Positions 25,844-49,655 of a stretch of 64,000 nt of DNA are shown here, piece by piece. The stretch covers positions 864,001 through 928,000 of the forward strand of contig CAVZJV010000014.1 of the NCBI GenBank assembly GCA_963775685.1. Direction: 5' to 3'. Position numbers and translations under genes: made by a program. The notes under the pieces are model-generated. The model searched no databases and was not told the DNA's origin. It saw nothing but the letters and a program-made list of their open reading frames with translations. This DNA is from Candidatus Bathyarchaeota archaeon (GTDB taxonomy: Archaea > Thermoproteota > Bathyarchaeia > Bathyarchaeales > Bathycorpusculaceae). The stretch's first letter is position 1. The number at the start of each line of letters is the position of its first letter.

Positions 25844-26122
25844 ATGGTTGAAATGAAAGTTAAAGCTTCAGAACTCAAAGGTGAAGAGAGTAAACTGATT
25901 GAGAAACTAGCCGATTTCCTCAAGGAAAAAACAGGCGGAGACGTATCAACAGACTCAAAAGTCATCACGGTAAAAGGTGAAGGTGAAGCTCTCTCAAAGA
26001 AATACGTGCGAATCACTGTTAAAAAGTTCTTGCATAAACATGAGTTGACAGAAACCTTCAAAGTTATCGGTGATGAAGAAGCACTTAAAGTTAAAGAGCG
26101 AAAACTCGAAGAGGAAGATTAA
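25844..26122 (+). CDS. rpl22e: Ribosomal protein eL22
   Basis: LADFLKEK...ITV....LSKKYVRITVKKFLHKHEL.E.FKVI matches the eL22 SKRYLKYLTKKYL pattern; acidic tail; GAGGTGA RBS. Confidence 0.8.
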   Translation: MVEMKVKASELKGEESKLIEKLADFLKEKTGGDVSTDSKVITVKGEGEALSKKYVRITVKKFLHKHELTETFKVIGDEEALKVKERKLEEED

Positions 26123-26587: not shown

Positions 26588-27028
26588 ATGAGTATGTATC
26601 GGACCGGTGTTGCGAACCTGCCCTTGCATGGTGGCAAGGCCCCTTCTTGGCTTACGGTGCGCATGCGTAAATTAGCCAAAGAAATAGCTAAGATCATGAT
26701 TGAAGAGCAGGGCACAGCCAAATTTATCGCGCGTCTTAGTGATCCCTTTTGGTTTCAGGCTTTTGGTTGCGTGTTGGCTTATGACTGGCACAGCAGCGGA
26801 GTAACCACCGTGGTCACAGGCATCCTCAAAGGTGCACTGTCGCCCGAGGAACATGGCGTTGCTGTTTGCGGGGGTAAAGGCAAAACCAGCCGAAAAACGC
26901 CCAGCGACATCGCGGCAGTCGGCGAAAAATTTGGTTTCTCCCAAGAAACTGTCGATGACCTAACCTACACGAGCCGTATAACCGCCAAAGTCGACAACAC
27001 CGCCATCCAAGCCGGTTATCAACTCTGA
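26588..27028 (+). CDS. DUF763 family protein, N-terminal part (interrupted by integrated element)
   Basis: ANLPLHGGKAPSWL, LSDPFWFQAFG, DWHSSGVTT, AKVDNTAIQAGYQL then TGA. Confidence 0.9.
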   Translation: MSMYRTGVANLPLHGGKAPSWLTVRMRKLAKEIAKIMIEEQGTAKFIARLSDPFWFQAFGCVLAYDWHSSGVTTVVTGILKGALSPEEHGVAVCGGKGKTSRKTPSDIAAVGEKFGFSQETVDDLTYTSRITAKVDNTAIQAGYQL

Positions 27029-27040
27029 ACCTCATGCTTT
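27021..27040 (+). repeat. attL: core AACTCT plus TCATGCTTT
   Basis: AACTCT (27021-26) GAACC TCATGCTTT (27032-40); mirrored at 41559-41577. Confidence 0.75.
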
Positions 27041-27057
27041 TTTCGCTATTACCACGT

Positions 27058-28234
27058 CTATGTCAGCCTCGAATAGAGTTTAACTGTTCTGCCGTCTTTG
27101 TCTATTCCAGTGTCGTATAGTTCATAGCCTAATGTCCTAAGTTCCTCTTGTTCATCAATCGTGTAAGCCCTAGGAGTTTCATAGGTACAAGCCTGGTCAT
27201 CGAAAGTGCCAAAATATTTCTCTGTGCTGCTTAAGCGTTTGTGACCTAATCGGGCTTGAACCTTGCGAACGTTGAATCTGGTTTTCTTGTATGTTTGATC
27301 GGCGTAATAGCGTCTAAAGCTGTGGTGATGAATGTTTAACAGATTTGGCATACTGAGTTTTTTGGCTATGCGGTTTCTGGATCGTGCAAATGTTGATTGA
27401 AGAGTGCGTTTGTTTGGGTTAAAGACGTTAGGGCTGTATTTCTTTGGTAGCGCTAACAGCATTGCAATACATTGTTCGGTAACAGTGATATGTCGCGCCT
27501 TGCTGCCCTTCTCTGGATGGTTAATGTAGATTATCTTGGCTTGTGCGTCAATCTCTTTTTCCAGTAACCGCGCCATTTCCCCAACTCTAATGCCGGTGTC
27601 TGCCAATGCTTGACATAACGCTGCTTGTTCTCTGCCCAAGTTTTGTATTAAAGTTGTGACTTCATAGGGTTTAGGCGTGTATTGTTCCTTAGAATCATAT
27701 GTTATCTTTGGCTTATCAAATGGTATTTTGAACGCTTTAGTATAACTTAGGTAGGCTTGGACATAATGGAATTTTGAAGCATCAGTGAAACCTTCAGTTG
27801 CAAGAATCGTTAGGAAGCTATCGGGGTTGTCTAAGTTTGTGCCTCTTTTCATCGAATACTTCTAAACGGAAAACTCGGTGTGCTATAGTTGTGTCTGCTA
27901 TATTACGTAACTTCTCTTTCCATATGTATTGTATTAGTCGCGTGTCTAAGTTGGTTTTTTCACCAGCGATAGCTCGTTTAACTATCGCTTGAATGGTCAA
28001 GTTTTTCGCATCCTTGTTTGGTAGCGCATACTTGGCTATTGGTGTATTCTGTGCTTGAGTTTTTAAGGCTTGGGGGTCTGTGAATCTGTAACCACACTTT
28101 TTGCATGAAAAACGCTGTGCGTCTGATCCATCGCTTAAAGTGCGGTGCCCAGAGCATTGTGTCTTTTCAGAGCCACATTCAGGACAACAAGGCAAAATGA
28201 TACTTTTAAGGTCAGCTAAGGCTTGAAGTTTCAA
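27058..28234 (-). CDS. Tyrosine integrase with N-terminal zinc ribbon (frameshift ~27850)
   Basis: CPECGS...RFSCKKCGYRF; catalytic TGIRVGE, EKG, HSFRR, LGHK, TEKY all present. Confidence 0.9.
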
Positions 28235-28376
28235 TTAAACTTCACTCCTTTAACATCAACACTTTTGGAAATACTGCGTAAATGTTCACTCAACGAGTTA
28301 GCATGGATATGAAATTCTTTTACTTCCGCTTCTATCGCAACGTATCTAACTTGGAAATAATAAAAGCAAGTCAACG

Positions 28377-28586
28377 TTAAACTTCCCTCTTTGAAACTTG
28401 AATGTATTGGAAAAAAACATCTTTCTCGTCGTTGTACATCTTGGGTGATGTGGGTTCACAATCGAAAGCTAACTTCAAATAATCAAGAAGTTGGTCAGGA
28501 AATTCCTTATTTTTTGAAATTATTTTTATTGTTGTTTCAAACGTAGGGGGTTTAATGGAAATTAAACTACTATCTGCTATCACCAT
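28377..28586 (-). CDS. Hypothetical protein
   Basis: 69-aa ORF co-oriented with its neighbours. Confidence 0.45.
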   Translation of the reverse strand: MVIADSSLISIKPPTFETTIKIISKNKEFPDQLLDYLKLAFDCEPTSPKMYNDEKDVFFQYIQVSKREV

Positions 28587-28620
28587 CTGCTATATACACC
28601 ATAAGAAAAAAGCAAAATTG

Positions 28621-29178
28621 TTAGCTAGGGTTGTCCTTAACAATTTTCCACGTATGCGCTTTCCGTTGAGAAACATTACAAACTCTTTTTCCAGCATCGA
28701 CAACTAAGCCTTTTTTAACAAAACTATTACGTACAGGGCGAATCACGTTTGGGTCTCTGTACCCCAGGGAAAATGCGAGCTCATAATCCGTAGAACATGG
28801 ATGCTGAACCAATGCGTCAAAAACTTCTTTGTTTGTGACAGTTGGGATTAATTTCTTAAATTTTCCAGTTGGAACCGTTATTTCATTATTATTTCCGACG
28901 CCACGCCAAAAATGTGCCGATTTACCTGAAATCGTACACTTGCGCTTTCCCATGTCGCTCAATAAGTCCATATCGTAAAGTTCTTTTCTTCTAGGTCTTA
29001 CAACGTCAGGATTTTGGAAACCCATGGCAAAAGTAATTTCTAAATCGGTAGAATCTGGCCAAGTGAGAAAAGCATCTAAAACCGCCTTTTGCCTTTCTCC
29101 AAGTTCGGGTGTAATTTCTAGATAAGCAATAATAGATGTTTCTCGCATTAATCGGGTAAGTCGCAGTTGTTTTTTCAA
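28621..29178 (-). CDS. Tandem winged-helix DNA-binding protein
   Basis: Two ~60-aa internal repeats: STD.E..F..G...P.V.RP.R.......L..D.GKR.C..S...AH.W. Confidence 0.7.
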   Translation of the reverse strand: MKKQLRLTRLMRETSIIAYLEITPELGERQKAVLDAFLTWPDSTDLEITFAMGFQNPDVVRPRRKELYDMDLLSDMGKRKCTISGKSAHFWRGVGNNNEITVPTGKFKKLIPTVTNKEVFDALVQHPCSTDYELAFSLGYRDPNVIRPVRNSFVKKGLVVDAGKRVCNVSQRKAHTWKIVKDNPS

Positions 29179-29314
29179 CGATAATCAAAAGAAAAATAAC
29201 GTTGTTATTGCTCACTGGAGTTTTCAAAAAAAGAAAAAGAACACGCTTCGGGGAAAATTTTAAAATACTACTTTTTTAAGCTAACTTAAAAAGAAAAGGA
29301 AAAATTATTTTTTC

Positions 29315-31950
29315 CTAACTTTTAGTTAAAGCTTTCATCAATGTACTCGATATTTCTGTTTTTGTCTCTTCGTTTACGAAGATGTATTGAATTTTATTTT
29401 CAACTTCATCTTTAATGATGCCATCCCAACCTTCAACGGGGAACTCTGCAAGGCGTTTATCCATGCTATTAGTAACATCTAAGTTTTCGATGTCGCTTTC
29501 AGTTCCGCTCAAGTTGCTTCTCAGCTTAGATTTAAGTGTTTCAACAATTTTCTCTTTGCCACCTAGAACACCCATATTTCCTTTTCGATGTTATTCTCTA
29601 AAGATTCTTCTATCGCTTGTTTAGTTTCAGCCGTTACCACTTCGTCTGGTGGTCTAACCTTAGCTTTGCATCCATGCTCCTCTAGCTTCTCGTCAACCAA
29701 GCAAGAAACTTCTCAGGAGTGAATGCGTTCAGCTCAATCCTATTCATAAGTTTGTTGCCATCTTTATCATAACCGGCATCCGTTATCTCTTTTAGTTCCT
29801 CAGGCATGTACTTGCCGATTTTTTTAGATATTTTTGTGTAATGACCATCTTTATTTTTTTGCCAAGGAACTTTCTCAGGTTTCAGTTTCCATTCTTCAGC
29901 GTCCTTTATTGTCAAGCCTAAATCAACAATTTCAAGTTTATGTTCTGGGTCGTTTTGGCTTCCATGCTTAAACGTTAAGGAAATGCCCAAACCGTAGACA
30001 TCAGCATTGTGAACGGTGAATAATTGCATCTTTTGACCGCTTTCTTCAGCCATCTTCTTTAACTTCTTTAACATTTTACGGGCACCCATAGACCTTCGCC
30101 TCTTCCAGCAATCACAGCTACATCAAATTTATCGTGAAAGTGATTTTCAGTCAGAATCCCTTTAAAACCACGTTTTTCTATGAATAGAATTTTATTGTAT
30201 TTCCAAGCAGGCAATTCATAATCATCTACGTTCTCAGTATCAATCAACATAACGGATTTTTCACGGGGTTCTTGGAGCTCGCCACTGGCTTCTTTAAGCA
30301 TTTTTTTCAGAATTTCGTCACCATTAGAGTACTCTCTCCTGAATTGCTCAAGAAGAGTTGGCGTAAAATAGGGATCGAATTTAGACACCAGATCGCGCCA
30401 CCCTTTTTTAATAAAAATTTCTCTCAAGGTGTACCATAAGTTACGAGCATAATAGCTGAGTTTTCCTCCACTTGAAACAACGCCAACAGCTTCAGGCAAC
30501 ATATCAAAAACTTTTTCTTTCTGAGTAGCCGTACCAGCAGCTATACTTTTATCAACAGTTTCGTCCTCTCGGATTCGTTTGATCTACTTTTTTAGGCTCT
30601 TAGACAATCCTGATGCATCATAGACAACTATAGCATAGAAGAAGCAAACGGCCTAACATTAATCCTTGTTTTACCTAGGTCACAAAAGGGCACGTTTGGG
30701 CTTATCAAGTGAATCCATACCTCAACTGGATCGGAATCTGTTATGCCATTGTAATCTAATATGCCTGAGATATTTTGCAATATTTTTCCATTCACAATAC
30801 CTCGTAATCGTAGTTTAAACTTCTATCATCTGGTCTAAGGTCCTCGATTGATCGCAACATGGATTTTCTGTTTACTCGTATCGTTAAAAGCTTTCACGGC
30901 GACTTCTACTAAAAACGGGATTTTTTGGCTAGTCTCATTATCAATTGTAATGGCTTTCTTAAACTTGTATTTACTATTCCATTTAGTAGAAGGATTTCTC
31001 CCAAAAACCTGATCAATACGTCTGAGCTAACGGCCTTTGCTCAAGGCTAAGGGCAACAGAACAGTTGCAGTCGCTGCTTTGCCTATGCCTGAAAGGTATT
31101 CTAGAACTCTCAAGTAATACTGCCTTCTTTGTTCAGGACTGAAGTCCTTTAGATTTTTTGGAAAGTCTTTCAATTTTAGTTCGCTGCAATCTCTGAACTC
31201 TTGAGTAAAAACATCTGTCTCTTTGTCTCCTACAGCGATTATCTGTTTGATGAGTGTTTCCTCGTCAAAATCCAGAAATGACTCTCGGAAGTGTATTTTC
31301 AGGTCTGCTATCTTTTTGTATAGCAGCTAGTCGCGCTTTAGCTCTTTGTATGTAAAATTGACATGTGGATTAACGCGACGTATTCCAAAAATTTCTCAAG
31401 ATATGGTTCATCTGTCGCTCACTTTTCAAAGTAAGGTGGAAGAATAACGGATACTTTTGACGCTCATTCGTCACGTTCAACATCAGAAATTTTCGGGATG
31501 ATTTTTGCTTCTTTGCTATCATATAGAACGTCTAAGTTATATTTTTTACCGTTGCTAATAATCGTAATAGGGCATTCGTCGTATGTTTCATGAAGTTCTC
31601 TAGCGAGTGCGGTGCATCTACCAGGGATTATTTTATAGGCGTGTCCAACTAAACTGATGGTTATGTATTTGTAGAGTGCTCTGCTTGAGTAGAAATGTTT
31701 CAGGTCACATATTTTACGTACATTCTTTTCTACTCAGCCTAAACTATTATCTTTAACAGTGATTTTTATGAAGCTTCTGAATGTTTTTTCAATACATAGC
31801 TCAATGTTTACGTCTTTAATTTTTTCTTTAATTTCTAGCTGGCAGTATCTCTCGTCACACATGTCGATTGAATTTCCTAAGAGCTCACTAGATATGACAG
31901 CGTTGAAGTTTTCTATCGGTTCACCTATCAACGTTGTAATCCAAGCAATG
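29315..31950 (-). CDS. Fused type IIB topoisomerase (TopoVI-B plus TopoVI-A; Topo VIII-like), many frameshifts; 5' end lost in poly(A)
   Basis: GHKL ELLGNSID...ITVKDNSLG; NPHVNF; PFLVEVA; transducer IHLISPNVPFCDLGKTRI; ARNLWYTLR; Toprim ILFIEKRGF, HNADVYG; RIELNAF. Confidence 0.75.
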
Positions 31951-32516
<566 letters not shown>

Positions 32517-35040
32517 TCTACAACAAGGAGCAAAAAACACTACTAATAGAAAAATCTAAAATCTCTTACTGTGATTGGTGAGGATGTTGGAATTAGCTTG
32601 ATAATTGAAGAAAGTGATTTTTGATATAAAAAAAGAAGTTTGGACTGCATATTTATAAAATATATGAGCTAACAAGAAGTCAATAAAGTTCTCAATAGGG
32701 AAATTATGGGGAAAAATGCTAAAGTACTTTCTAAATAATAAAATATAAAAAGTTAACTGCAAAGTAAAAGTGTTGAGGTATATAAAAAAGAATAGGTGTA
32801 TAAAGTTTATTGTTCTATGGAGAAGAATAGTTAAAGGAATAGTATTTTAAAGAAACTAAGTATAAGATTGAAATTGTAGAAAATATAGAGAGTAATATAT
32901 GATAAAAGAGAAAAAAAGATTGAAAAGTATAAAAAGACTGAAATATAGATAGATAGATTTAAATGAAAAGCTAAATATATTTATAGAAAATAGAAACAGT
33001 GTTGGGTTAAAGTTGCTATAAAAAATCTCTCAAAGATTTAGGTAAATTGTCAACGGTAGTTAAGAGCTTCATAATTACATCAGTTGAAGTTGAGTTATAG
33101 TGATATGTTTACCTTATAATGCGTATTCTACAAGTTTACTACTGATATTTACCACTATACTTTTAGTTAACTCTATAGTTTTGGAAAAAACGAGAAGTCG
33201 CTAACAGTTAGTACTGTTGACAAATGTTTTGGCTGAAGTTCAGGCGCTTTTTGAGGTCCTTTATTTCCGAAAAGAAAGTTCATACTAATTTATTACAATA
33301 GAAAAAGAAGTAGTTTGTTTTAATTTTCTATCCAATGTATGCTAATTACACTATTAACCTAATAATGCATCAAATAGAACAAAACTACAAATGTTAAAAA
33401 ACCATAAACATAAGCATGGCATCAATCAAGCAAAAAGAAACTAATAGCGTAAACTTTGATTTTGTTGACTCATCTTATTCATAGATGGCGACAATAACAT
33501 AATTACAAATAGAAGCTAAAAACCTATTAATAGCCGGGAAAAAAAGTACCGTGAGATTAAACTATAAAAGAGGCTTAGTTTTTAAGGTTTGCAATAACTA
33601 AAGCAATTAATTATTTTTATTACTCGGATACTGCCATTTTGGCAGTGCTCTTAGTTTGCGATTTTAAACGGTAGTAGCTTCTTCTGAAATACCAAAAGTA
33701 GTTATTAACTTAATCTCTGATAACACATGCTCAAGGCAGAAAGCAGAATGCGTCACTAATAGGAAAATTTTAGTAAAGGCTAAAGTGATAAATTAACTTT
33801 TCAATAAACAGATAGATTACTTTAATTTAAATGTAGAGTATTTGACGTAACAGCTTGAGGATGAAGGCAGCTATCTCTTCTCTAGAGTATGTTTTATCAC
33901 CGAACGTTGATTGTTTTTGGAAAAGGGCAACGTTACAGGTCATAAGGCAAGTTAATGGTTTTCTCATAAAGAGACACGTAAGGTTTCAGAGACTAAGAAA
34001 CTTTGCAATAATAGCACGATAAAAGCTAAGAAAAACCTAAAATTACCAGCGCTTTGTAAAATAGCCATGTTCATCTCGACGTAGATCTGCCATGCTTATA
34101 GAATAACCCTTTAGAGTTTGGTTTCAATAGTTCCATGAAATCCATACTTTTTTCGGTAAATGCAAGTTTGATGTAATTGGAGTTAACTTAGATATTCTAT
34201 CATCAAAAAAAGGGTTAATAATTGCTGTTTCTCCTCCCCTATTTGATACACTACCAAAGAACCCACTTTTCTAATTTCAGTGATTTTATGTCACGATAGA
34301 AAAAAGATAAATTACTGCACTGCTAAATTGGCATAAGGTAATTTTAACTCAGAAAGACACTTGAAACCACTTTCTAAAGCTCTTTTTATGAGGATAAAAT
34401 TCTATAAGCAGATATATTATACTCTTTTTTACATGGAAAACAGAGGCTAATTTAGGCTTGTTTTCTGTACTTTTTAATGGAGCTTTAAAGGTAATTGTAC
34501 CATTTATTAGCATTAATGTATAAATTAGAACATACCAGCACTGACAGGATTACTTTTTATCACCGTCTTTTTATGGAAAAGCTGGATTTTATATAACGTA
34601 AAACCCCTGTTCGCTTTTTCTTATCATGTTTAGCATAACTCAATGGACATTTCAACATAACAAGCGTATTTACACGTTAAAATATCTATAAGAACATCAC
34701 ATTAGACCTAAAAAAAGACTATGCTTTACACTTTTCCTTATATACTAAACACTTTCTGTTTTTTATGAACCCCTGTATAAACAATATTACAAGTCTACTA
34801 AAAAGAGTAAAAATCGTGTGTAATCGCAAAACCTAATATTTTTATCGACTCTGGTATGGTCTAACATACTTGTTTAGTACTAACTAAACAAACAATATGG
34901 TAAGCCAAAAAATTTTTTAATTGAAAAAAGTTTCCCCTTAAGGCGCACAGCAAAGTTTTATTTCACCGTTTCCCATGCCAAAGACCATGCTTGAAAGGTC
35001 ACGGTAAAAAACTTAGAGAGATTAGAAGAAATATATTTCA

Positions 35041-36105
35041 TTATACAATAGAAGATTCCTTGAAGGTTAAGAACTTCTCACAATCCTTTTTCCAAACAGC
35101 TCTCCAGCTATCATCGCTTCTATTGAGATAGGTCTTTCCAAGATCGCCTAAGTTGTGGCCCATCATGTACTCGATAACTGAGTCAGTTACTTTGGCATCA
35201 GTTAAGAAAGTTCTAAAGGCTGTGCGTAAGCTGGAGGGAACGCAAGGATTACGGAGTTGCTTTTCCGGCTCTTGTTTCTTTTCTGAATCTGCTTTGGGTT
35301 GTACCTTTGCTAAGAAGTAGTGTGAGCGTCTATCGAAATACTTTTGAACACTCACAGAACTTCTATTGAATAGAAGATCATCTTCACTAAGAGCTTTAGG
35401 TAGGCTCTCATAGTATTGCTGAAAGAACCGTATGCCTTGAGTGCCAATGAAGGTTCTAAATTTTATTTGGAACTTCCTTGTTTTCCAGCGAACCATGTTT
35501 AAGCAGAAAGGGTTAACGTCGTTCTCGTATTGCTGTTTCACTTGACCGTAAGTTAACTTCAGTAAGTCAATGTTACTGAGGCCACTTTGTAGAAACCAAA
35601 CTCCTAAGCAACGATAGAGAGGTTTATCGAAAGATTGAATGAACTCTCCGACTTGCTGAAGGCTCCAAGCAAACTTAGGGTTCTCGGTTACTGCAGGAGG
35701 TAGATCACTGTAGCTTGTTGTTATTGGAATCTCAAAGAACTTGAAGAGAGCTTGCACAGAACCGACGTAAGCTCTAACGTTTTTATCAGCGAAGTCCTTG
35801 TCAACAAGATACGCTCCATATTGCTTTAGCAGTTCTCGGTCAGGAAACTTCTTTCTCTCAGCCACATCTATCTTCTTATCAATCCTAACAGCTACAAAGA
35901 AAGCTGAAATATCCTTGACAGTTCTAAACTCTGAATCCTTTTTGAGTGATTGCTCAGAAAGAAACGTTTGAAACAAAGCGAGCCCAGGTTTGTAGGATTT
36001 AGCTGAAGAGCCTAACTTACCTTGAGCGATTGCTTCAGTTGGAGAAATAGTATTAAGAAACTTGCTAACTTCAAAACCTAAACCTGAATCAATCATATCT
36101 ATCAA
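35041..36105 (-). CDS. Second tyrosine recombinase/integrase with atypical catalytic boxes
   Basis: QSGLSNIDLL, RWKT, PSSLRTAFRT, EYMMGH, KTY. Confidence 0.85.
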   Translation of the reverse strand: MIDMIDSGLGFEVSKFLNTISPTEAIAQGKLGSSAKSYKPGLALFQTFLSEQSLKKDSEFRTVKDISAFFVAVRIDKKIDVAERKKFPDRELLKQYGAYLVDKDFADKNVRAYVGSVQALFKFFEIPITTSYSDLPPAVTENPKFAWSLQQVGEFIQSFDKPLYRCLGVWFLQSGLSNIDLLKLTYGQVKQQYENDVNPFCLNMVRWKTRKFQIKFRTFIGTQGIRFFQQYYESLPKALSEDDLLFNRSSVSVQKYFDRRSHYFLAKVQPKADSEKKQEPEKQLRNPCVPSSLRTAFRTFLTDAKVTDSVIEYMMGHNLGDLGKTYLNRSDDSWRAVWKKDCEKFLTFKESSIV

Positions 36106-36252
36106 AAGAAAAAGGTGTTTGTTTAGTAACTCTTCATTATGATGCGGCTATTTGTAATCAATTAAGCTAGGGTTATAGTATCAAACAGGCTTAATCGCTA
36201 TATGAGATTTCCGTTCTATCAAGAGAACGAAAAAAGAAAACATCATTCTGGA

Positions 36253-36738
36253 TTAAGCTGAAATCAGGGTGAAACCGTTTGGTAGAAGCGCATTGTGAAT
36301 GTTACCAACGTAAACCATATCAGAAAAAGTAATAGCGGTATCAGTCGGTAGTTGGTCCTTTGCGTTTATGATTTTGTATTTTCTCATTGAAGAATCAGGT
36401 AGCACAACTTCAAGACTAAGTTTACTATTTTCTGAAGCTAACTGGCAAATTTGAAAGCCTATTTCCGATTGCTTATCCAAATCATTGGATAGCAAGAATT
36501 TCGCATTATTAGAGGTTAAAGTTGTCGGTCGATTCAGTATAATCTTTATGCCTTCCGGGAGAGGTCTTTCAACCCAATGGATCAGTTCGGGAATAACAGG
36601 AACTTCAGGTTTATCCTCTTCAGGTCTAATGTTAATTTCTTCTTTAGGCTTTTGGGGTGTTCTCCATGAGAAGCGAGATTTACCAGAGCCATGCCTTTGA
36701 TTTCCATAACCGTGACCAGAACGAGCACCATAACTCAT
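36253..36738 (-). CDS. Hypothetical protein with GHGYG basic N-terminal leader
   Basis: MSYGARSGHGYGNQR; GAGGA RBS. Confidence 0.7.
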   Translation of the reverse strand: MSYGARSGHGYGNQRHGSGKSRFSWRTPQKPKEEINIRPEEDKPEVPVIPELIHWVERPLPEGIKIILNRPTTLTSNNAKFLLSNDLDKQSEIGFQICQLASENSKLSLEVVLPDSSMRKYKIINAKDQLPTDTAITFSDMVYVGNIHNALLPNGFTLISA

Positions 36739-36769
36739 GTCATCAAATCCTCAATAGAAAAAAAGAGAA

Positions 36770-36904
36770 TCAGACTTCTTTCAATTTGAAAGTGTGATCT
36801 TTGAAGCAAGTATATGTTTTCAGCTTAACACCTTTGCGTACAATATCCTCGACAAAATCCATTGGCGCCTTACATTTAGGACATAATGGAGCATCTTCAC
36901 TCAA
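36770..36904 (-). CDS. Small zinc-finger protein, 44 aa (TTG start)
   Basis: SEDAPLCPKCKAPMDFVEDIVRKGVKLKTYTCFKDHTFKLKEV; start overlaps the upstream stop. Confidence 0.55.
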   Translation of the reverse strand: MSEDAPLCPKCKAPMDFVEDIVRKGVKLKTYTCFKDHTFKLKEV

Positions 36905-37488
36905 AAGTAATCCTTCCATCTGTCACTATCTTCACTGACATTCTCCATGAAATCTTTGTATTCTCCAGCCCACTGTTTAGCTTCTAAATCAGCACTATTC
37001 AACTGATCTTTCGAATAACTATTCTCTTTAGCCATTTGGTCTAGGTAATCCTTGTTTTCTTCATAGCTCAATTTGTGGTCTATTTCTGCTCGGTCAATCC
37101 CATACTTCTTAGTTAACGCCAATAGGTGAGCTCGCTCAAGATAGGTTAGTTTAGTTTCATCTCTGGTTTTATGCTCAAGTTTTACTTTCTCTTTCTTAGG
37201 CACATAACCAATCGGTTGACTAGATAACAACCCAGCAGAATCCTTTGGTTCAACAGCAAACTTATCCAAAGAAGGCTTAACTTGCGCCTTCGGAGTGTCA
37301 ATGTTAGGCCAATCAAAGTGCGAAGGATAATTCAACCATTGTTGCTCAGTCTCAGCGATAGGCGCATGAAGCCTATCATCCATCAAAATAGACCGGCGAC
37401 TACGAGAGTTTTGAACACGCATTAACCCCTTGAAACCACGCCTACGATTATCGCCGTACCCATGACCGCCTCTAGAATTGTAAGCCAT
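36901..37488 (-). CDS. Hypothetical protein with GHGYG basic N-terminal leader
   Basis: Likely start MAYNSRGGHGYGDNRRR after GGTGA; in-frame upstream extension to 37614 encodes a TM segment. Confidence 0.7.
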   Translation of the reverse strand: MAYNSRGGHGYGDNRRRGFKGLMRVQNSRSRRSILMDDRLHAPIAETEQQWLNYPSHFDWPNIDTPKAQVKPSLDKFAVEPKDSAGLLSSQPIGYVPKKEKVKLEHKTRDETKLTYLERAHLLALTKKYGIDRAEIDHKLSYEENKDYLDQMAKENSYSKDQLNSADLEAKQWAGEYKDFMENVSEDSDRWKDYF

Positions 37489-37628
37489 ATCTTCACCAAT
37501 AGAAAAATGAGCTATTAGCAATACAAGGGTAAAGAGTGCAATAAAGCACAAGCCAAATAGTCCTATGCGGTGTTTTTTCCTTGACTTTCTCTTACCCAGA
37601 GCTGTGACCATCACAAGAAAAAAAGAGG

Positions 37629-38180
37629 TTAGAGTTTTCTTGATAGCAAAATGGATATGACGCCAAAAATACTGAGAATTGAACCTGTCTCAAGAGAGTA
37701 TATTGGGTTCAATGCTGTTGTTGCTATAGGTGTTGGAGTTGGGTTTGAAACCGATGGTAAGGACCCGTCGAGATTTGTCACCGTTAAAGATGAAACGCAG
37801 TTAATTTGGATTCCATCAATCCCTATTTCAACTTCGACTTTATGAATGCCAGGGCTCTCAAAAAATAGGAAACAGGAAGAACTTGTCACTGGTATTTGAT
37901 TTTGGTCAACAAACCAAGAATAAGTTATAACGTGAGCGTTTGCGTCAATTCCTGATCCCAAAGAGGTTGTAAACGATATCGATTGGTTGATTGCGAGAGT
38001 CGCTTGTGTCGGGGTAAAAACAACAACATAGCGGCCATCTTGACTACTAAATACACCGAGTGGTACGCCAAAAGGTTGAATATTAGCATAAACAGTCATG
38101 CTAATAAGACCTAAACCGCTAAGTAACGAAATTATTCCTATAGTAATAAGAATCTTGGCACTCAGCTTTTTCGTTTTCAA
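37629..38180 (-). CDS. Membrane-anchored PKD/Ig-like domain protein
   Basis: N-terminal TM, TYSWFVD...FESPGIHKVEVEI, PT linker, C-terminal TM. Confidence 0.65.
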   Translation of the reverse strand: MKTKKLSAKILITIGIISLLSGLGLISMTVYANIQPFGVPLGVFSSQDGRYVVVFTPTQATLAINQSISFTTSLGSGIDANAHVITYSWFVDQNQIPVTSSSCFLFFESPGIHKVEVEIGIDGIQINCVSSLTVTNLDGSLPSVSNPTPTPIATTALNPIYSLETGSILSIFGVISILLSRKL

Positions 38181-38357
38181 GTCTTAAGCCTCTATAAGAA
38201 AAATAGAGGATGTACTGTTGGAAGAGTGGTTAAAATTGAAGACAACTGAGCTATTGATGTTTCAACCATACACAATAGAAAAAAAGGGCAAACAAAAACG
38301 AAAGCAAAATGGTGGACTTGTTTTGCTCTCGGCCCTACAAAAGAAAAAAGCCAAAGT

Positions 38358-38675
38358 TTAGGCTAATTTACGTTTCAGCTTTTCACTCTTCAGCTTCTTT
38401 TCAATATTGCTGAAAGTCAAATCATCCTCTTGCTCATACATGAGGTAATTAGTTTTTTCTCTGTAATCTCCACCGCGAAAAGCAAAGTTTATCAAAAGCT
38501 GCCCAAATCTGGTGTCAGGTTCAAGTTCCCAGAGTTCCTTCAGAGCATTAAGCAGTTTGGGTATTCGGGATGGGTCTCGGGGTTTGTAGTTGGCTGCCAT
38601 TTCCTTAATCTCTTTCAGTATTTCTTTTGACAATTTTGTGCTTTTCTGCTTTTTAGGTTGTTTCTTATCGGTCAA
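38358..38675 (-). CDS. Phage-type conserved hypothetical protein
   Basis: RDPSRIPKLLNALKELWELEPDTRFGQLL pattern recalled from phage proteins. Confidence 0.6.
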   Translation of the reverse strand: MTDKKQPKKQKSTKLSKEILKEIKEMAANYKPRDPSRIPKLLNALKELWELEPDTRFGQLLINFAFRGGDYREKTNYLMYEQEDDLTFSNIEKKLKSEKLKRKLA

Positions 38676-38862
38676 AACTTGCGCACCTTATTCCTTTCTC
38701 TCTTTTTTCTAACCGGATAAGCTCTGCTACTGCAAACTCAAAGGCGTGACTTGTATTTCTGAAACGGTATTTTTTGACCTGTTCATTTATCCAGTCGATT
38801 AAGGTTTTTTCTACTGTTATGGTAACTTTTTGTTTTGGCATACTTTCCATATTGTTCGCCAT
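38665..38862 (-). CDS. Ribbon-helix-helix regulator
   Basis: KVTITVEKTLIDWINEQV....FRNTSHAFEFAV. Confidence 0.75.
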   Translation of the reverse strand: MANNMESMPKQKVTITVEKTLIDWINEQVKKYRFRNTSHAFEFAVAELIRLEKREKGIRCASFDR

Positions 38863-38899
38863 CTCTTTTAGGCTTTAACCATCATCATCTTATTATAGT

Positions 38900-38915
38900 A
38901 AAGCTTATAAGCTTT
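38900..38915. promoter_or_regulatory. Palindromic bidirectional BRE/TATA element
   Basis: Perfect 16-bp palindrome AAAGCTTATAAGCTTT between divergent ORFs. Confidence 0.6.
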
Positions 38916-38950
38916 TGCCTTATAATAGCTTACACAATGTTTAGGAGAAA

Positions 38951-39304
38951 ATGAAAAATATGAGCCACCTAGAAAAAGAAACAGAAAATAAAACCCAAAA
39001 AATTGAGTTAGACATCCCAACAGGTGAAATAGCCCTACTTCAACAATTCGCAAAAACACAAGGAAAAAGCGTAAACCAACTATTGAGCAAAATAATCAGT
39101 GAAAAAATCGCAGAGGAAAAAGGTGAACACCTAACTTTTGAAGAAAACGGCGTAGTCTATGAGCGCCTATCAATCGACCTTCCACAAAACATCGTTAATT
39201 TCTATCGCTATAAGGCACATGCAAAAGGCTTATCAGACCTAACAGAAAGTCTAATTGCCTTTGACATCACCGATCACCTATACGCAGAAATAGAAGGCAA
39301 CTGA
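38951..39304 (+). CDS. Putative RHH-containing regulator
   Basis: IELDIP...LLQQFAKTQGKSVNQLLSKII; AGGAG RBS. Confidence 0.6.
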   Translation: MKNMSHLEKETENKTQKIELDIPTGEIALLQQFAKTQGKSVNQLLSKIISEKIAEEKGEHLTFEENGVVYERLSIDLPQNIVNFYRYKAHAKGLSDLTESLIAFDITDHLYAEIEGN

Positions 39305-39429
39305 AGCGACGACTGGAAAGAACTCTTTAACCTATCCTCAGATTTCGACGGAATATTCAACCGGGAAGAACTATTATTACGGAACTCGCCGCGAAGCAAA
39401 GAAAAAACAAAAGCAAAGGAAAACTGAAA

Positions 39430-39600
39430 ATGTCACCAAATACTGAAGATCAAAAGAACGAGTCTATAACGATTAATGTTACTGTTCCTAAAGCCTTCCT
39501 GCAGAACGTAGTTGGATACTTGAAGAAAACAGGACATTATAATGACTTAGACGAGTTTGTCATGGAAGCACTACGAGAAAGAATGCTAAAAGTATCATAA
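39430..39600 (+). CDS. Small ribbon-helix-helix protein, 56 aa (below the ORF-track cutoff)
   Basis: MSPNTEDQKNESITINVTVPKAFLQNVVGYLKKTGHYNDLDEFVMEALRERMLKVS. Confidence 0.65.
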   Translation: MSPNTEDQKNESITINVTVPKAFLQNVVGYLKKTGHYNDLDEFVMEALRERMLKVS

Positions 39601-39746
39601 CCTTCCAATTTCCGCTTTTCTTTTTTTATTCTTTTCACCATAAATAGGGACCGACGCCTATTGGGAAAGCGTCGATCCCATTTTGGCTTTGTCTGCTGCT
39701 TTTGTCTTTGATGCCTTTTTCTGGCACAAGAAAAATACCAGAATTG

Positions 39747-40121
39747 TTAATTGGCATATCCAAGGTATTGCCAAACAATTTTTCCATTAACTCTCGAAAC
39801 CCTATAGAGATAAGGGCCATGAGGGCAACCATTACAGTTCTTTCCACAAGGCACAAGTTTAGAGACTAAAGACCCCTTAGTTTTGATCTGAGTTTTCTCA
39901 GCATTACTGTTTTTCTGTTCATTGAGGCTTTCTTGCAGGATTTCAACAAAATCATTCAATTCGACTAGGATTTTTTTGGTTTCTTCGATAAACTTATGGT
40001 TCTGCTCATAGATAGCCAGGGCATTTTCAGCACCTTGCCTTTTATCCTTGCACGTTTGATAAGCGGTTAGCATGGCCTCGTAAACGTCTTTAACTGTCTT
40101 ACCTAACACATCCATGAACAA
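39747..40121 (-). CDS. Coiled-coil plus Cys/His HGPY domain protein (DUF6788-like)
   Basis: CGKNCNGCPHGPYLYRVSRVNGKIVWQYLG. Confidence 0.65.
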   Translation of the reverse strand: MFMDVLGKTVKDVYEAMLTAYQTCKDKRQGAENALAIYEQNHKFIEETKKILVELNDFVEILQESLNEQKNSNAEKTQIKTKGSLVSKLVPCGKNCNGCPHGPYLYRVSRVNGKIVWQYLGYAN

Positions 40122-40122
40122 C

Positions 40123-40147
40123 CTCTCCTAAACGTTAGGTAAGAAAA
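40123..40147. repeat. 25-bp direct repeat, copy 1 (hairpin plus RBS on the minus strand)
   Basis: CTCTCCTAAACGTTAGGTAAGAAAA; 23/25 identical to 41475-41499. Confidence 0.8.
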
Positions 40148-40199
40148 CACGCATTCTTTTGAAGATAAGACAAATAAGTAAACCCTCAAAAGAAAAATA

Positions 40200-41464
40200 T
40201 CAAAATACTGAGAAACTACTCACCAGCATCGACAATCTTGTTTTAGCTGTCCTTTTGCGTCAGCTTCTTCTGAACTTAGCCAATAGACCGTCAAGTTTCA
40301 GTTTCAAGTCACTGTTTGAATAGTTACTAAGAATAGCATTGACAGAACCGTTTTTATCGTCAACCATAACTAAGCAGCCCTCATTTTTGATAACTCAGAG
40401 ACTTTTTGAGTAAGTGCCAAAATCAGTTTTAGATTAGCATCAGATTCAGCCTTATGCCTCCGCTCTTGCTCTGCCAACCTATCCTCGTGTGCTCGTTGTC
40501 TAGCCTTCTTGAGCCTCTAACCTTTCAGCTACCTTAACCATAATGCGATTAGTATCTCTCTGTGTCAATGTACTACTCTGTAGATTGTTGGCAACCAAAC
40601 CTAAAGCGCCTTGAGTTTGAGCGAAAGCCATTCCGCCGCTGACAAGTCCAAGCATGGCCTCAAGACTCTTCTCTTCCCTTGAATGAGCCTCCAGTCTAAC
40701 CACGTTTTCGCCTAAAGCTGGCTTGTTATAAACCCTTGCGATAAAACTGTCAAAAGCCTTAAGCGTCACAGAAATAGGCAATTTACTTTCGTCAACATTT
40801 ATAAAATCATCATTTAAGCCAAACTGCACAACCTTCCATTTCAGAAAGTTATCTCTAATCTGAGATAACCCATGAAGTTCAAGCCATGTATCAACCCTAG
40901 CTAACGATAAACAAAAACCGTCATAATCCATCGGCTCCTCAGTACAACCACACCAAACCGTCAAAGTCTCCGCACTTAACTGAAAACTTGTAAGACCCTT
41001 ATCCTTAACCCCAAAATGATCTCGCAACATAGAGCCTAAAGGAGTTAACGATTCAGTACCAGTAAGTGGTGTCGTGTTCGCTATGACTGAGTTGAAAGTC
41101 TCTAAACCACATCTTTAGTAGTAATCTTAAGAGTTAGACCATGAATGTGCCATTTTTTGCCTGTGCTGTAACTTTTGAGCAGTCGGTTAAAGTCGTCATT
41201 CATGCGTTTGGTCGAAGCGTAGAAATGATATTTCCCTCTATCGTCACATACAACCTTGTTTTTCTCAAGTAAAACCTTTAGAACCCTTCTAACTGTGCCT
41301 CCAGGGAGATGCAAACAGTTTTTAGCCAAGTATGAAGGATTGAACCACTCGTCACCTGTTGCTCTGCTCTCAAGGAACTCTAAGACCCTATCCAATGCGT
41401 TCGTATATCCGTTCAATGTGTTCGCTTTTACGCATGCAGGAGAGGTATTATTTGCTGAATCCAA
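40200..41464 (-). CDS. wHTH plus Rep_trans-like putative rolling-circle initiator, frameshifted (3' end approximate)
   Basis: N-terminal wHTH (PSYLAK...TVRRVLKVL); WKVVQFGLNDD, IARVYNK and VVRLEAH motifs; coiled-coil tail. Confidence 0.5.
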
Positions 41465-41474
41465 AATTAATTTA

Positions 41475-41499
41475 CTCTCCTAAATATTAGGTAAGAAAA
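41475..41499. repeat. 25-bp direct repeat, copy 2
   Basis: CTCTCCTAAATATTAGGTAAGAAAA. Confidence 0.8.
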
Positions 41500-41558
41500 A
41501 GTGAGAACCAAAAGAAAAAGGAAGGTGTCGCTGGCGATGTATCCACTAACACGCTTTA

Positions 41559-41577
41559 AACTCTACCATCATGCTTT
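41559..41577 (+). repeat. attR: core AACTCT plus TCATGCTTT
   Basis: AACTCT (41559-64) ACCA TCATGCTTT (41569-77). Confidence 0.75.
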
Positions 41578-42262
41578 CCTGGTTACCAAAGATGAGAAGT
41601 GGGCGGTTATCCAGCAGGGAATGAATGACAAAGATCGCAGTGCCAGGCGCTACCACTGGTTGAGCGAAAATACCAAAGATTTTGTTGTCGAACCGCATAA
41701 CGCCATCGTTGGAACTAAACATACCGGAGTGCTAAACATGGTGGCTAAAACCAGCGAAGCCGCCCGCAAAGCTTCTGTTGACCTATCAAAGGAACCCACG
41801 CGCAAACTTGTGAACCTTATCGAATCTTTCTCAAAACCCCACAACCAATCTTCGCTTCAACAGTGGCTTCCTAAAACTTCAGAGCGCTGGCAGCAAACCC
41901 TCACCACGCTCAATATGCCCCGCAACATAAACTGGGATACGCTAAGCCGCGTCTATGAGTTTCAACCCAGCAATTATGAAGAACTGCTCAGCTTAAAAGG
42001 GGTAGGACCAGCAACCGTTCGCGGATTAGCACTTGTAGCGGAACTGGTTTATGGGGAAGAGCCTAGTTGGGAAGATCCTGTCAAATTCAGTTTCGCTTAC
42101 GGGGGCAAAGACGGTGTACCGTATCCTGTAGACCGCAAAGCTATGGATGAATCCATCCAAATTCTTAAGCAATCTGTTCTAGAAGCAAAAATCGGCGAGA
42201 AAGAAAAACTGCAGTCCCTGCAGAGTCTACGTCGATACGTTCCGCTTAATGCAAATTCTTAA
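41561..42262 (+). CDS. DUF763 family protein, C-terminal part
   Basis: LYHHAF, WAVIQQGMN, ARRYHW, GVGPATVRGLAL, DPVKFSFAYGGKDG. Confidence 0.9.
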   Translation, partial: LYHHAFLVTKDEKWAVIQQGMNDKDRSARRYHWLSENTKDFVVEPHNAIVGTKHTGVLNMVAKTSEAARKASVDLSKEPTRKLVNLIESFSKPHNQSSLQQWLPKTSERWQQTLTTLNMPRNINWDTLSRVYEFQPSNYEELLSLKGVGPATVRGLALVAELVYGEEPSWEDPVKFSFAYGGKDGVPYPVDRKAMDESIQILKQSVLEAKIGEKEKLQSLQSLRRYVPLNANS

Positions 42263-42294: not shown

Positions 42295-42890
42295 ATGTCT
42301 AAACAAAAAAATTCTTACCAAAGGATTGGTGCATCCATGGGCATAGTTGCGCCCATGATAGCGTTTGTCTGTATCGGTGGCGCCATCACCTCTTATCCAC
42401 AGTTTAGCTGGACAAATAACGCTCTTAGCGACTTAGGCGTCATTTCAGGTATAACAGAGAATCTTTTTTCAACTTTGGGCTTCTCGCCAGTGGACTATTA
42501 GCCTTCAACTTCGCGATAATTGGCTTGTATAATTATCTGGGCAAAAGCTGGGTAGGCAAAATTGGCTCAGTAGCTTTTGTTGGGGCTTCTTTGGCGCTTA
42601 TTGCCATAAGTGTATTTACCGAGGATTTTTCACCTACCCACTATGTTGTTTCTGTAGCATTTTCCGTGTTGGCGCCGATTTCGTTGTTCTTACTTACTGG
42701 CGCGTTCTGGCTGAGTCACCAGCGTCGATTCACGGTTTTCACGATTTTTGTTGCCTTTGCAGCAGCTTTGCCGTGGCTTTTACAGTTCGCATTTAATTAC
42801 GTGCCCAATGTGGCGATTCCTGAAACCGCTTCGGGTCTCGCCTTTTCATTATGGGTTGTTGTGGTTGGCAAAGAGATGCTAACAGCCTAA
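42295..42890 (+). CDS. DUF998 family membrane protein (frameshift ~42470)
   Basis: PQFSWTNNALSDLG, FTEDFSPTHYVVS, VAIPE. Confidence 0.8.
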
Positions 42891-47436: not shown

Positions 47437-49655
47437 ATGGCGCGTTATAGGCAGACAGACGAAATTGTTAAACTGATGGAAACCCCGCTTTTCATTCGCA
47501 ATACCAGCATCATTGCTCACGTTGACCACGGAAAAACAACTCTGGCCGACAGTCTTCTGGCAGCGGCAGGAATCATCAGTACCCAAACGGCAGGACAGAA
47601 ACTGTTCCTTGACTCATGGGACCTTGAGCAGAAACGTCAAATGACCGTTTTCGCCTCAAACGTCAGCCTCGTCCACACTTACCAAGAAAAAGATTACTTA
47701 ATTAACCTAATCGACACACCAGGCCACATTGACTTTTCAGGCGCCGTAACAAGAAGCCTGCGAGCAGTTGACGGCGCACTCGTGGTTGTCGATTCAGTTG
47801 AGGGACCAATGACGCAGACCGAAACCGTTCTAATGCAGGCCCTAAGAGAACGCGTAAAGCCAATTCTATTTATCAACAAAGTTGACCGCTTAATCAAAGA
47901 AATCAAACTAACACCAGCAGAAATACAAAAGAAATTCGCAAAGATTCTCCTAAGAGTTAACACGTTAATAGAGAAATATGCACCTGCTGAACACAAAAAA
48001 GACTGGCAAGTAACAATCGAAGATAGTCGTGTAGCTTTCGGTTCAGCCCTTCACAAATGGGGCTTAAACCTTGACCACATGAAAATGAAGAAGGTCACCT
48101 TCCAAGACATCATCGACGCCTACACAGGTGACCCAATAGATGTCGGCCGAAAAGTCGATGAACTCAGCAAGAGAGCACCTTTGCCTGAACCAATATTGGA
48201 CATGTTCGTTAAGCATCTTCCAAACCCCTATGATGCTCAGCCCTACAGGCAGCCTCAAATTTGGCCAGGAGACGTAAACAGCCCAACAGGTCAGGGAATG
48301 GCAAAAGTCGATCCTAAAGCGCCGTTGCTCATGTGCATCTCCACCATCGAAGTTGACCCACACAGCGGAACAGTCGCAATCGGCAGAATTTTCAGCGGTT
48401 CAATCGAGAGAGGCAAAACCGTTCAGCTTTTAAGCAGCAACCAAAAAGGCACTATTCAACAAGTTTTCATGAGTATGGCAACTGACCGTGTTCTTATTGA
48501 CCGCGTTCCAGCAGGCAACATCGGAGCCATTTCTGGTCTTCCATCCATCCACGTCGGAGAAACCATCGCTGAAGAAGGACAAGAAGTACACTCTTTCGAA
48601 GGCTTAAACTACGTTTCAGACCCAGTCGTAACCGTCGCTGTAGAACCAGAAGACGTCAAAGACCTACCCTTATTCGACAAAGTCATGCACAAACTCACAA
48701 CTGAAGACCCCAACTTGCACTTCATCATGAACAAAGAAAGCGGCGAATTCCTCCTATCAGGTATGGGTGAACTTCACCTTGAAATCACCGCTTACCGAAT
48801 GCAGGAAGCAGGCTTAAAAGTTAAACTTAGCAAGCCAATTGTCATCTTCAGAGAAACTATCAGTCACGATTACAAGGGACCAGCAATCATGGGTAAAAGC
48901 CCCAACAAACACAACAAACTCTGGATAACCATCGACAAGTTATCTGACGAAGTCATCGAGGCAATTAAATCTGAAAAAATCTACTGATATGCAAAGCAGA
49001 GACGAACGAACCAAAACCTTACGCGCACTCGGCTGGTCACCAGACGAAGCCAAAGGCGCCGTTGCTGTAGAAGAAAACTGCATACTCTGCAACCGCATTC
49101 GCGGACGCCAATACGTAGAAGAAATCATCGACCACATCAAAACTGGATTCCGCGAAGCAGTCCACACATCCCCACTTGCCAAAGAACCAGCTTACGGACT
49201 TAAAAATTAACCTTGAAGACATAACCCTCCACGAGGACCCAGTCCACCGCGGACCCGCACAAGCTATCCCAATGACTTGGAGACCAATCTACTGCGCTAT
49301 TCTCTTGAGCGATCCAAAACTGCTTGAGCCACTGATGAGCTTCGAATGCAAAGTTCCAAGCGAATATGTCAGCGCTGTCATCACAATGCTAAACAAACGC
49401 CGCGGCAAAATCCTCGACATGCCCTCAGAAGATGACATAATTACCGTTAAAGCAGAAATGCCCGTTTCCGAAAGCTTCGGCATAGCTGATGAATTGCGCG
49501 GTTCAACTTCAGGAAGAGCATTTTGGGCCACACAGTTCAGTCGTTGGGCATATGTTCCAGAACAGATGCAGGCAGAAACCATAAAGAAGATCCGCGAACG
49601 CAGAGGCTTACCACCAGTTCCGCCAAAGCCAGAAGAATACTTCGAGAAAGAATAA
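47437..49655 (+). CDS. fusA: Translation elongation factor EF-2 (stand-alone, probable paralog); frameshifts ~48985 and ~49205
   Basis: AHVDHGKTT, DTPGHIDF, NKVD, GMGELHLE, KSPNKHN, HEDPVHRGPAQ, LRGSTSGRA. Confidence 0.93.

Follow-up and report, generated by a model that had tools for sequence, protein, structure and literature searches.

The 64-kb stretch of DNA analyzed here (G000:C14:864001-928000, hereafter the window) comes from a Bathyarchaeia genome that we label G000, and it contains an integrated element that cuts the sole DUF763 gene of that genome in two. We consider it very probable that this 14,538-bp insertion is a cryptic, plasmid-like element belonging to a family whose Zn-ribbon tyrosine integrases target the middle of the DUF763 gene and leave the gene unrepaired. 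The G000 assembly has a size of 3.06 Mb in 14 contigs and is 96.9% complete with 2.4% contamination; the window lies on a contig of 2.47 Mb. Searches of the whole genome found no second DUF763 match, and the element is present in a single copy.

An insertion splits the DUF763 gene at a defined site. An earlier note on this DNA had described an element of about 14.5 kb, bounded by a shared AACTCT core, whose precise excision would rebuild one DUF763 open reading frame (ORF) of 378 amino acids (aa). The junction sequences that it quoted are present letter for letter: the left part of the gene ends ...GGTTATCAACTCT|GA and the right part reads ...TTTAAACTCT|ACCATCATGC, with 14,538 bp from core to core. 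The two ORFs match consecutive segments of the Pfam family PF05559 (profile positions 1-139 with E = 7.1e-61 on the left, and 139-319 with E = 3.6e-66 on the right), the gene being interrupted at position 139 of the hidden Markov model (HMM). When the halves were joined in silico at AACTCT, the claimed 378-aa ORF was reproduced with zero internal stops, reading ...AIQAGYQLYHHAF... across the joint; precise excision thus rebuilds the frame in silico. The further repeat that had been noticed 4-5 nt past the core at both junctions was recovered as well. In its extended form, AACTCT-N4/5-TCATGCTTT, it is found at the two junctions and nowhere else in the window, and in none of 100 shuffles.

Most relatives of G000 carry DUF763 as a single uninterrupted gene. 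All of the intact same-genus orthologues that were extracted (29/29) run without a break across the insertion point, and their homology to G000 breaks off and restarts exactly at the core hexamer. The insertion has the direct repeats at both ends, the exact empty sites in relatives and the integrase gene beside one end by which integrative elements are recognized. The chromosomal flanks are ordinary, with DNA ligase and ABC transporter genes on the left and DUF998, radical SAM and P-type ATPase genes on the right. Synteny with two relatives, G047 and G131, is retained downstream of DUF763 (42.3-57.9 kb) and lost directly upstream (window positions 1-26530), where homology to G047 begins about 55 nt before the start codon. 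No tRNA was found in the 64-kb window, and Rfam gave no match between positions 26000 and 42600 at E <= 0.1. Features of the split gene and of the element are listed in Table 1.

Table 1. The split DUF763 gene and the element within it (positions in the window).
Feature	Position	Strand	Remarks
DUF763 N-terminal half	26588..27028	+	146 aa; PF05559 1-139; orthologue homology ends at 27026
attL core AACTCT	27021..27026		extended imperfect repeat reaches 27040
TGA ending the DUF763 N-terminal half	27026-28	+	last core base plus first two element bases
Element left arm (P' arm)	27027..27057		begins GAA, then T-run and CGCTAT-like block; from core to integrase stop
Tyrosine integrase, catalytic part	27058..27852	-	264 aa; PF00589, E 3.7e-16
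Integrase N-terminal part	27818..28234	-	138 aa; Zn ribbon and core-binding region; out of frame with catalytic part
Two small cargo ORFs	28377..29178	-	69 aa; 185 aa with two phrog_1123 repeats
Broken fused type IIB (Topo VIII-like) topoisomerase gene	29324..31940	-	six pieces in alternating frames; about 47 N-terminal aa missing
Poly(A) run, 564 nt	31951..32514		only homopolymer of >=20 nt in the 3.06-Mb assembly
AT-rich stretch	32515..35040		GC about 0.31; no ORF of >=60 aa from a start codon; no Rfam match
Cargo block, about 12 ORFs	35041..41464	- mostly	function unknown; no family above curated cut-off
354-aa ORF	35041-36105		part of cargo block
Element right arm (P arm)	41505..41558		about 55 nt; conserved between elements
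attR core AACTCT	41559..41564		extended repeat reaches 41577
DUF763 C-terminal half	41565..42262	+	232 aa plus stop; PF05559 139-319; homology resumes at core

The gene next to the left junction encodes a tyrosine integrase, and its stop codon lies 31 nt from the left core. An integrase with all of its catalytic residues had been reported 30 bp from this junction. The location and the residues stand, and the PF00589 score of 59.8 bits (cut-off 27.1) is close to the 59.5 bits of the intact G047 orthologue, but the ORF in question is only the C-terminal 264 aa of the protein. A +1 insertion near position 27854 separates it from the 138-aa N-terminal part, as judged against three intact orthologues of 385-432 aa, and a full-length, in-frame integrase is not present in the G000 copy. 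This frameshift may be real decay or an assembly error, the latter being possible because 2/12 neighboring host genes are also frameshifted relative to G131. Columns R210, K236, H298, R301, H325 and Y334 (G047 numbering), which we take to be the R-K-H-x-x-R-H-Y catalytic positions, are invariant in five integrases including that of G000. The N-terminus of the G047 integrase matches NF050000, a Zn-binding domain of the IS1/IS1595 type. The catalytic part resembles XerA, although its score against the archaeal XerA model NF040815 is well below threshold (73.2 bits, cut-off 220); the closest solved structure is XerA 5hxy (E 8.6e-9). The gene is not partitioned in the manner of SSV-type integrases, as G047, G123 and G127 each have a contiguous ORF, with the core about 31 nt past its stop. 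Tyrosine integrases of the broad type are abundant in these archaea, with 12 matches in G000, up to 21 in one relative and at least one in 108/120 genomes of the genus.

Screening related genomes for split DUF763 genes beside homologous integrases, as the earlier note had proposed, revealed further cases. Among the 120 genomes of the genus, close relatives of the G000 integrase were found only in G047 (91% identity), G123 (71%) and G127 (69%), the next best match being 40% identical. In each of these three genomes, all from other species, the integrase gene abuts a DUF763 N-terminal half that ends at the same residue as in G000, and the C-terminal half lies on the same contig, 13.5 kb (G047), 4.6 kb (G123) or 4.3 kb (G127) away. 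A metagenome contig (L074) carries an integrase of 83% identity and the same left junction, after which the contig ends. In total, of the six loci whose integrase has an identity of 69% or more, five are positioned at the same DUF763 codon. Because the same site is occupied in other genomes, the G000 insertion represents a family and not a chimera, and these comparisons support a recurrent element family of DUF763-site integrases, as had been suspected for archaea, here in Bathyarchaeia. No obvious broken gene lies alongside eight more distant integrases (35-40% identity).

The four elements have no common DNA beyond the integrase and the attachment arms. Apart from the integrase, only one pair of proteins is shared between elements at E <= 1e-5, and that pair, from G123 and G127, is 28% identical. 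In G047 the element encodes an MCM-type helicase and a DnaA-like ATPase, and it has a further, short ORF that resembles an integrase. The elements of G123 and G127 are mini-elements of 4.6 and 4.3 kb. The protein common to the two mini-elements is rich in cysteine and has 412 and 324 aa, respectively (L036, 4470-5708, minus strand; L037, 2217-3191, plus strand). It has no match in Pfam, PHROGs or NCBIfam and is a candidate for a replication protein of a new kind. An assignment of these proteins as rolling-circle Rep proteins, from an H-F-H-like motif, was considered and dropped, as the libraries gave it no support.

The ends of the elements are alike. The left arm (about 31 nt) is partly conserved in the four elements and in the metagenome contig, and all five left junctions start with GAA, which together with the final T of the core makes a TGA directly after the leucine codon. 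The core is the same at attL and attR within each genome and differs among genomes: AACTCT occurs in G000 and G047, as well as at the one junction that the metagenome contig covers, and AGCTTT at both ends of the elements in G123 and G127. These hexamers are synonymous variants, and both are present among the empty sites. Tyrosine recombinases require identity in the overlap region. Given this requirement and the identity of the core at both ends within a genome, the site of each element appears to match that of its local host. Such a match points to recent or repeated recombination, and not to two ends that have drifted apart. The C-terminal half of DUF763 has no conserved start supplied by the element: the first start codon lies 63 nt (G000), 21 nt (G123) or 93 nt (G127) upstream of the joint, and in G047 it lies 54 nt downstream. 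For this reason, and because the N-terminal half is closed by a TGA made with the element, we read the gene as inactivated and unrepaired rather than as a designed two-piece protein.

These features suggest how the elements may move. The integrase would recombine the element site, which would consist of the P arm of about 55 nt, the 6-bp core and the P' arm of about 31 nt past the integrase stop, with one chromosomal site, the codons of the invariant Q-L-Y-H-H motif in the middle of DUF763. Integration would duplicate the core, so that the N-terminal half is closed by the element-made TGA and the C-terminal half lacks a conserved start. The same integrase presumably performs both integration and excision. 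The integrase and its attachment sites would form a module that rides on unrelated backbones, those with a Topo VIII-like gene in G000 and an MCM helicase in G047, and the 4.3-4.6-kb mini-elements of G123 and G127. The conserved motif may have been chosen as a stable target within a gene that the host can lose. The G000 copy itself may be decaying or immobilized, as its frameshifted integrase and shattered topoisomerase gene would indicate, and assembly errors could explain part of this.

The insertion point falls within the most conserved stretch of the DUF763 protein, A-I-Q-A-G-Y-Q-L|Y-H-H-A-F, in which L145, Y146, H147, H148 and A149 are invariant in 23 sequences from several families (alignment A1). 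Sequence and structure searches gave no lead to the role of the protein. Against PDB sequences there was only a marginal ComEA-like HhH match (E 0.32), and the ESM Atlas returned DUF763 clusters only. An AlphaFold2 model built from 23 sequences was poor (mean predicted local distance difference test score, pLDDT, 48.5) and had no Foldseek match in the PDB at E <= 0.001. DUF763 was found in 87/120 genomes of the genus. It was not found in the other 33, including 14 of the 73 high-quality genomes, and it is frameshifted or bears a stop in about 8 more. From these absences and breaks, loss of DUF763 looks tolerated by the host and the gene looks dispensable. In G115 the DUF763 gene (L046; G115:C8, near 170372) is longer by a single base, located 22 nt downstream of the core, so that the reading frame changes 7 codons past the insertion point; this may be due to chance, to an error of sequencing or to a scar left by excision. 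Seven other genomes of the genus likewise have a DUF763 gene with a frameshift or a stop. Genome G120 lacks a full gene and retains only its 3' end (profile positions 288-319), in two short copies on different contigs (G120:C1:123552-123647 and G120:C25:2112-2207).

Several observations weigh against a mobile family dedicated to this site. The sixth locus with a close integrase (73% identity), in G447 of another genus of the same family, is not beside DUF763; recognizable att arms were not found there, and the DUF763 gene of G447 is intact. Because this relative sits elsewhere, the integrase clade is not uniformly DUF763-specific, and the G447 integrase may have a different target or may have been rearranged. 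It lies at the end of a 13.8-kb contig (G447:C31; L040/L094), next to a gene for a beta-helix/LamG-like surface protein, and the contig showed no circularity by end overlap. A free episomal or viral form of the element was not found, a collection of viral contigs giving only a 22%-identical match. Scans of the G000 cargo with Pfam and PHROGs recognized no capsid, replication initiator or conjugation gene. With its integrase frameshifted, the G000 copy may be immobile. Finally, integrase divergence roughly parallels that of the host genes, which would also fit a long vertical association.

This last point leads to an alternative history in which there was one ancient insertion in DUF763, after which the integrase-att module was inherited vertically while replacement or deletion changed the cargo. 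The integrase identities to G000 (91/71/69% for G047, G123 and G127) do track the identities of the host DUF763 N-terminal halves (92/86/83%), G000 and G047 are near neighbors on the DUF763 tree, and neither the viral contigs nor the G447 contig turned up a free form. In a maximum-likelihood phylogeny of 33 DUF763 genes, however, the four split genes are scattered: 4 changes are needed, of which well-supported branches force at least 2, and a single origin was recovered in 0/200 bootstrap trees. Occupied sites are thus interspersed with empty ones, with the reservation that this is a single gene tree and that precise losses mimic gains. The site in G131 is empty, though G131 is as near to G000 as G047 is (79% versus 80% nucleotide identity in the C-terminal half), and there is zero cargo homology even between G000 and G047. 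Nor have the split halves decayed, despite a synonymous divergence (dS) above 1. We therefore regard a single ancient insertion as quite improbable. Since G131 is empty and the cargo is unrelated, the comparison favors several integrations by different elements that have a common integration module; a single insertion followed by precise losses would likewise prove mobility. The same undecayed halves could be taken to indicate a reversible gene switch, in which the element would be retained because its regulated excision restores DUF763 on demand, the gene being turned off by reintegration or by loss in a sub-population. Excision in silico gives a perfect ORF, none of the four split genomes has a stop or a frameshift in either half, and the identical core at both ends of each element is as expected of recent or recurrent recombination. 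DUF763 is under strong purifying selection (ratio of nonsynonymous to synonymous divergence, dN/dS, about 0.06), and pairs that include split genes have dN/dS of 0.058-0.061, equal to the 0.062 of intact-intact pairs, a comparison that is blind to recent relaxation as dS exceeds 1 between species. Against a switch, the G000 integrase is frameshifted and the element decayed or poorly assembled, the loss of DUF763 elsewhere in the genus seems tolerated, only 4 of the 87 DUF763-bearing genomes are occupied, and the cargo is unrelated between elements, unlike that of a domesticated switch element. On balance a switch is unlikely. We would give similarly little credence to the broader proposition that the integrase clade is specialized on the DUF763 mid-gene site, that the interruption is reversible in vivo and that carriers toggle the gene. 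If true, it would explain the undamaged halves in four species and provide an archaeal counterpart of bacterial "active lysogeny", for which a full-text search gave no archaeal example among the papers listed.

It is scarcely credible that the split gene is an artefact of metagenome assembly, the halves of DUF763 having been fused to foreign DNA. The G000 assembly does seem error-prone: its 564-nt poly(A) run, which has no counterpart elsewhere in the assembly, adjoins a gene with at least five frameshifts, and two of 12 neighboring host genes are frameshifted relative to G131. These two genes, at 42295-42890 (a DUF998 membrane protein) and 48989-49652 (221 aa, 96-99% identical to the G131 orthologue), suggest indel errors in the assembly. 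The same junction layout nevertheless recurs in four further assemblies of independent origin, in three of which a single contig holds both junctions, and the att arms are conserved. The earlier note had held that halves derived from different orthologues or strains would speak against the insertion; G047 and G131 proved to be the nearest relatives of both halves. A family of mobile elements that enter DUF763 by means of a common integrase remains the reading that we prefer.

The cargo of the G000 element comprises about 20 ORFs of unknown function overall, for which Pfam and PHROGs are nearly empty. It also includes the topoisomerase gene. A tblastn search with a full-length homologue of 938 aa (P0001) aligned residues 48-934 to positions 31940..29324 in frames -3, -2, -1, -3, -2 and -1, with in-frame stops. 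P0001 combines Topo VI-B-like and Topo VI-A/Toprim segments in one polypeptide. It and a second full-length homologue of 705 aa come from metagenomes, and none was found in the other 119 genomes of the genus. The fused architecture recalls topoisomerase VIII, a type IIB enzyme described on plasmids and integrated elements in the available text of Gadelle et al. 2014 (PMC4117785). Like Topo VIII, P0001 fuses VI-B-like and VI-A-like parts and its G000 relative is cargo of an integrated element; unlike the enzymes treated in that text, the G000 gene is in six frame pieces and lacks a start, and the likeness is one of architecture. The density of frameshifts in this region is about 10 times that in the host flank, and the region is either truly decayed or badly assembled. 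The poly(A) run, which the earlier note does not mention, sits exactly at the expected 5' end of the topoisomerase-like gene; either it arose in assembly or it is an insertion that lacks an explanation.

The remaining cargo block also encodes a predicted membrane or secreted protein of 183 aa and small DNA-binding-like proteins. Its 354-aa ORF was considered as a second tyrosine recombinase and rejected: Pfam, PHROGs and NCBIfam gave no support, and alignment to the integrases with hhalign had a probability of 0.2%. A 25-nt motif is found at 40123-40147 and 41475-41499 (92% identical), with a third, inverted copy at 38929-38948, just upstream of three element genes. It ends in a GGAGAG-like stretch, and its probable role is that of a promoter or ribosome-binding region common to these element genes.

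Several known systems resemble the DUF763 elements in part. The skin element in Bacillus sigK, the Anabaena nifD element and the Listeria comK prophage are switch elements for which regulated excision has been shown experimentally. As in those cases, the insertion is in mid-gene and precise excision would rebuild the ORF, here in silico; unlike in those cases, the cargo is variable, the target is often absent from the genus and only 4/87 sites are occupied. Archaeal integrases whose genes are not partitioned upon integration are known as pNOB8-type or type II and are distinguished from the SSV-type. The DUF763 integrases resemble them in that the gene is whole after integration and the att site lies outside it, 31 nt past the stop, and differ in their N-terminal IS1/IS1595-like Zn ribbon and in a target that is a protein-coding gene and not a tRNA gene. 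Bacterial elements at dusA restore the 5' end of the gene that they enter, unlike the DUF763 elements, in which no restoration was seen. The dusA-associated integrases are a clade tied to one gene and found in prophages and islands, according to the accessible portion of the report on them (PMC4482086); to that extent they are similar to the DUF763 integrases, which are bound to one site of a conserved protein-coding gene and carry variable cargo.

Archaeal integrase types have been reviewed (PMC8371274; see also PMC7253208, for both of which part of the text was available), and section 19 of the former catalogues further archaeal insertions in coding regions, none of them, as far as that section goes, tested for recombination. 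A close precedent is provided by the integrated mobile genetic elements (MGEs) of thaumarchaea, of which 14/68 lie in protein-coding genes, all in 3'-distal positions and one rebuilding a stop codon, in the available text of Krupovic et al. 2019 (PMC6563490). In that account they too belong to archaea, encode tyrosine integrases, have short att sites and protein-coding targets, and were established by comparison with empty sites. The thaumarchaeal insertions presented there differ in being 3'-distal, with at least one restoring the frame by an element-borne stop, whereas the DUF763 gene is cut at residue 146/378 and is unrepaired. The present elements differ from them further in their Bathyarchaeia host and in the use of one site by several unrelated backbones. 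A provirus survey found in a literature search on Bathyarchaeia integrases and attachment sites relied on tRNA and integrase markers. Full texts searched for DUF763 gave a single paper, on an unrelated matter, and the supplementary target lists of PMC6563490 might include a DUF763-type target. The suggestion that the family was undescribed holds in that nothing related came up in that search for DUF763; it does not hold for the wider phenomenon, as archaeal insertion into protein-coding genes had already been described. It is thus well supported that a previously unreported family of DUF763-targeting integrative elements belongs to a known class, that of site-specific elements in protein-coding genes. 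The family is less usual in that an archaeal gene is entered mid-way and left unrepaired, in that the core co-varies with that of the host and in that one module is found on unrelated backbones.

For the Bathyarchaeia, a widespread class of uncultured archaea without genetic tools, the family offers a cognate set of integrase, element site and chromosomal site, together with natural variants of the 6-bp core that co-vary between element and host. The presence of one integration module on unrelated backbones illustrates the modularity of such elements. The family is a clear archaeal case of elements that cut a conserved gene mid-way and leave it unrepaired, the thaumarchaeal examples in the available text of PMC6563490 being 3'-distal. 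Carriers of these elements are natural knock-outs of the widespread DUF763 gene, and, if excision were shown, the elements would become candidates for an archaeal gene switch.

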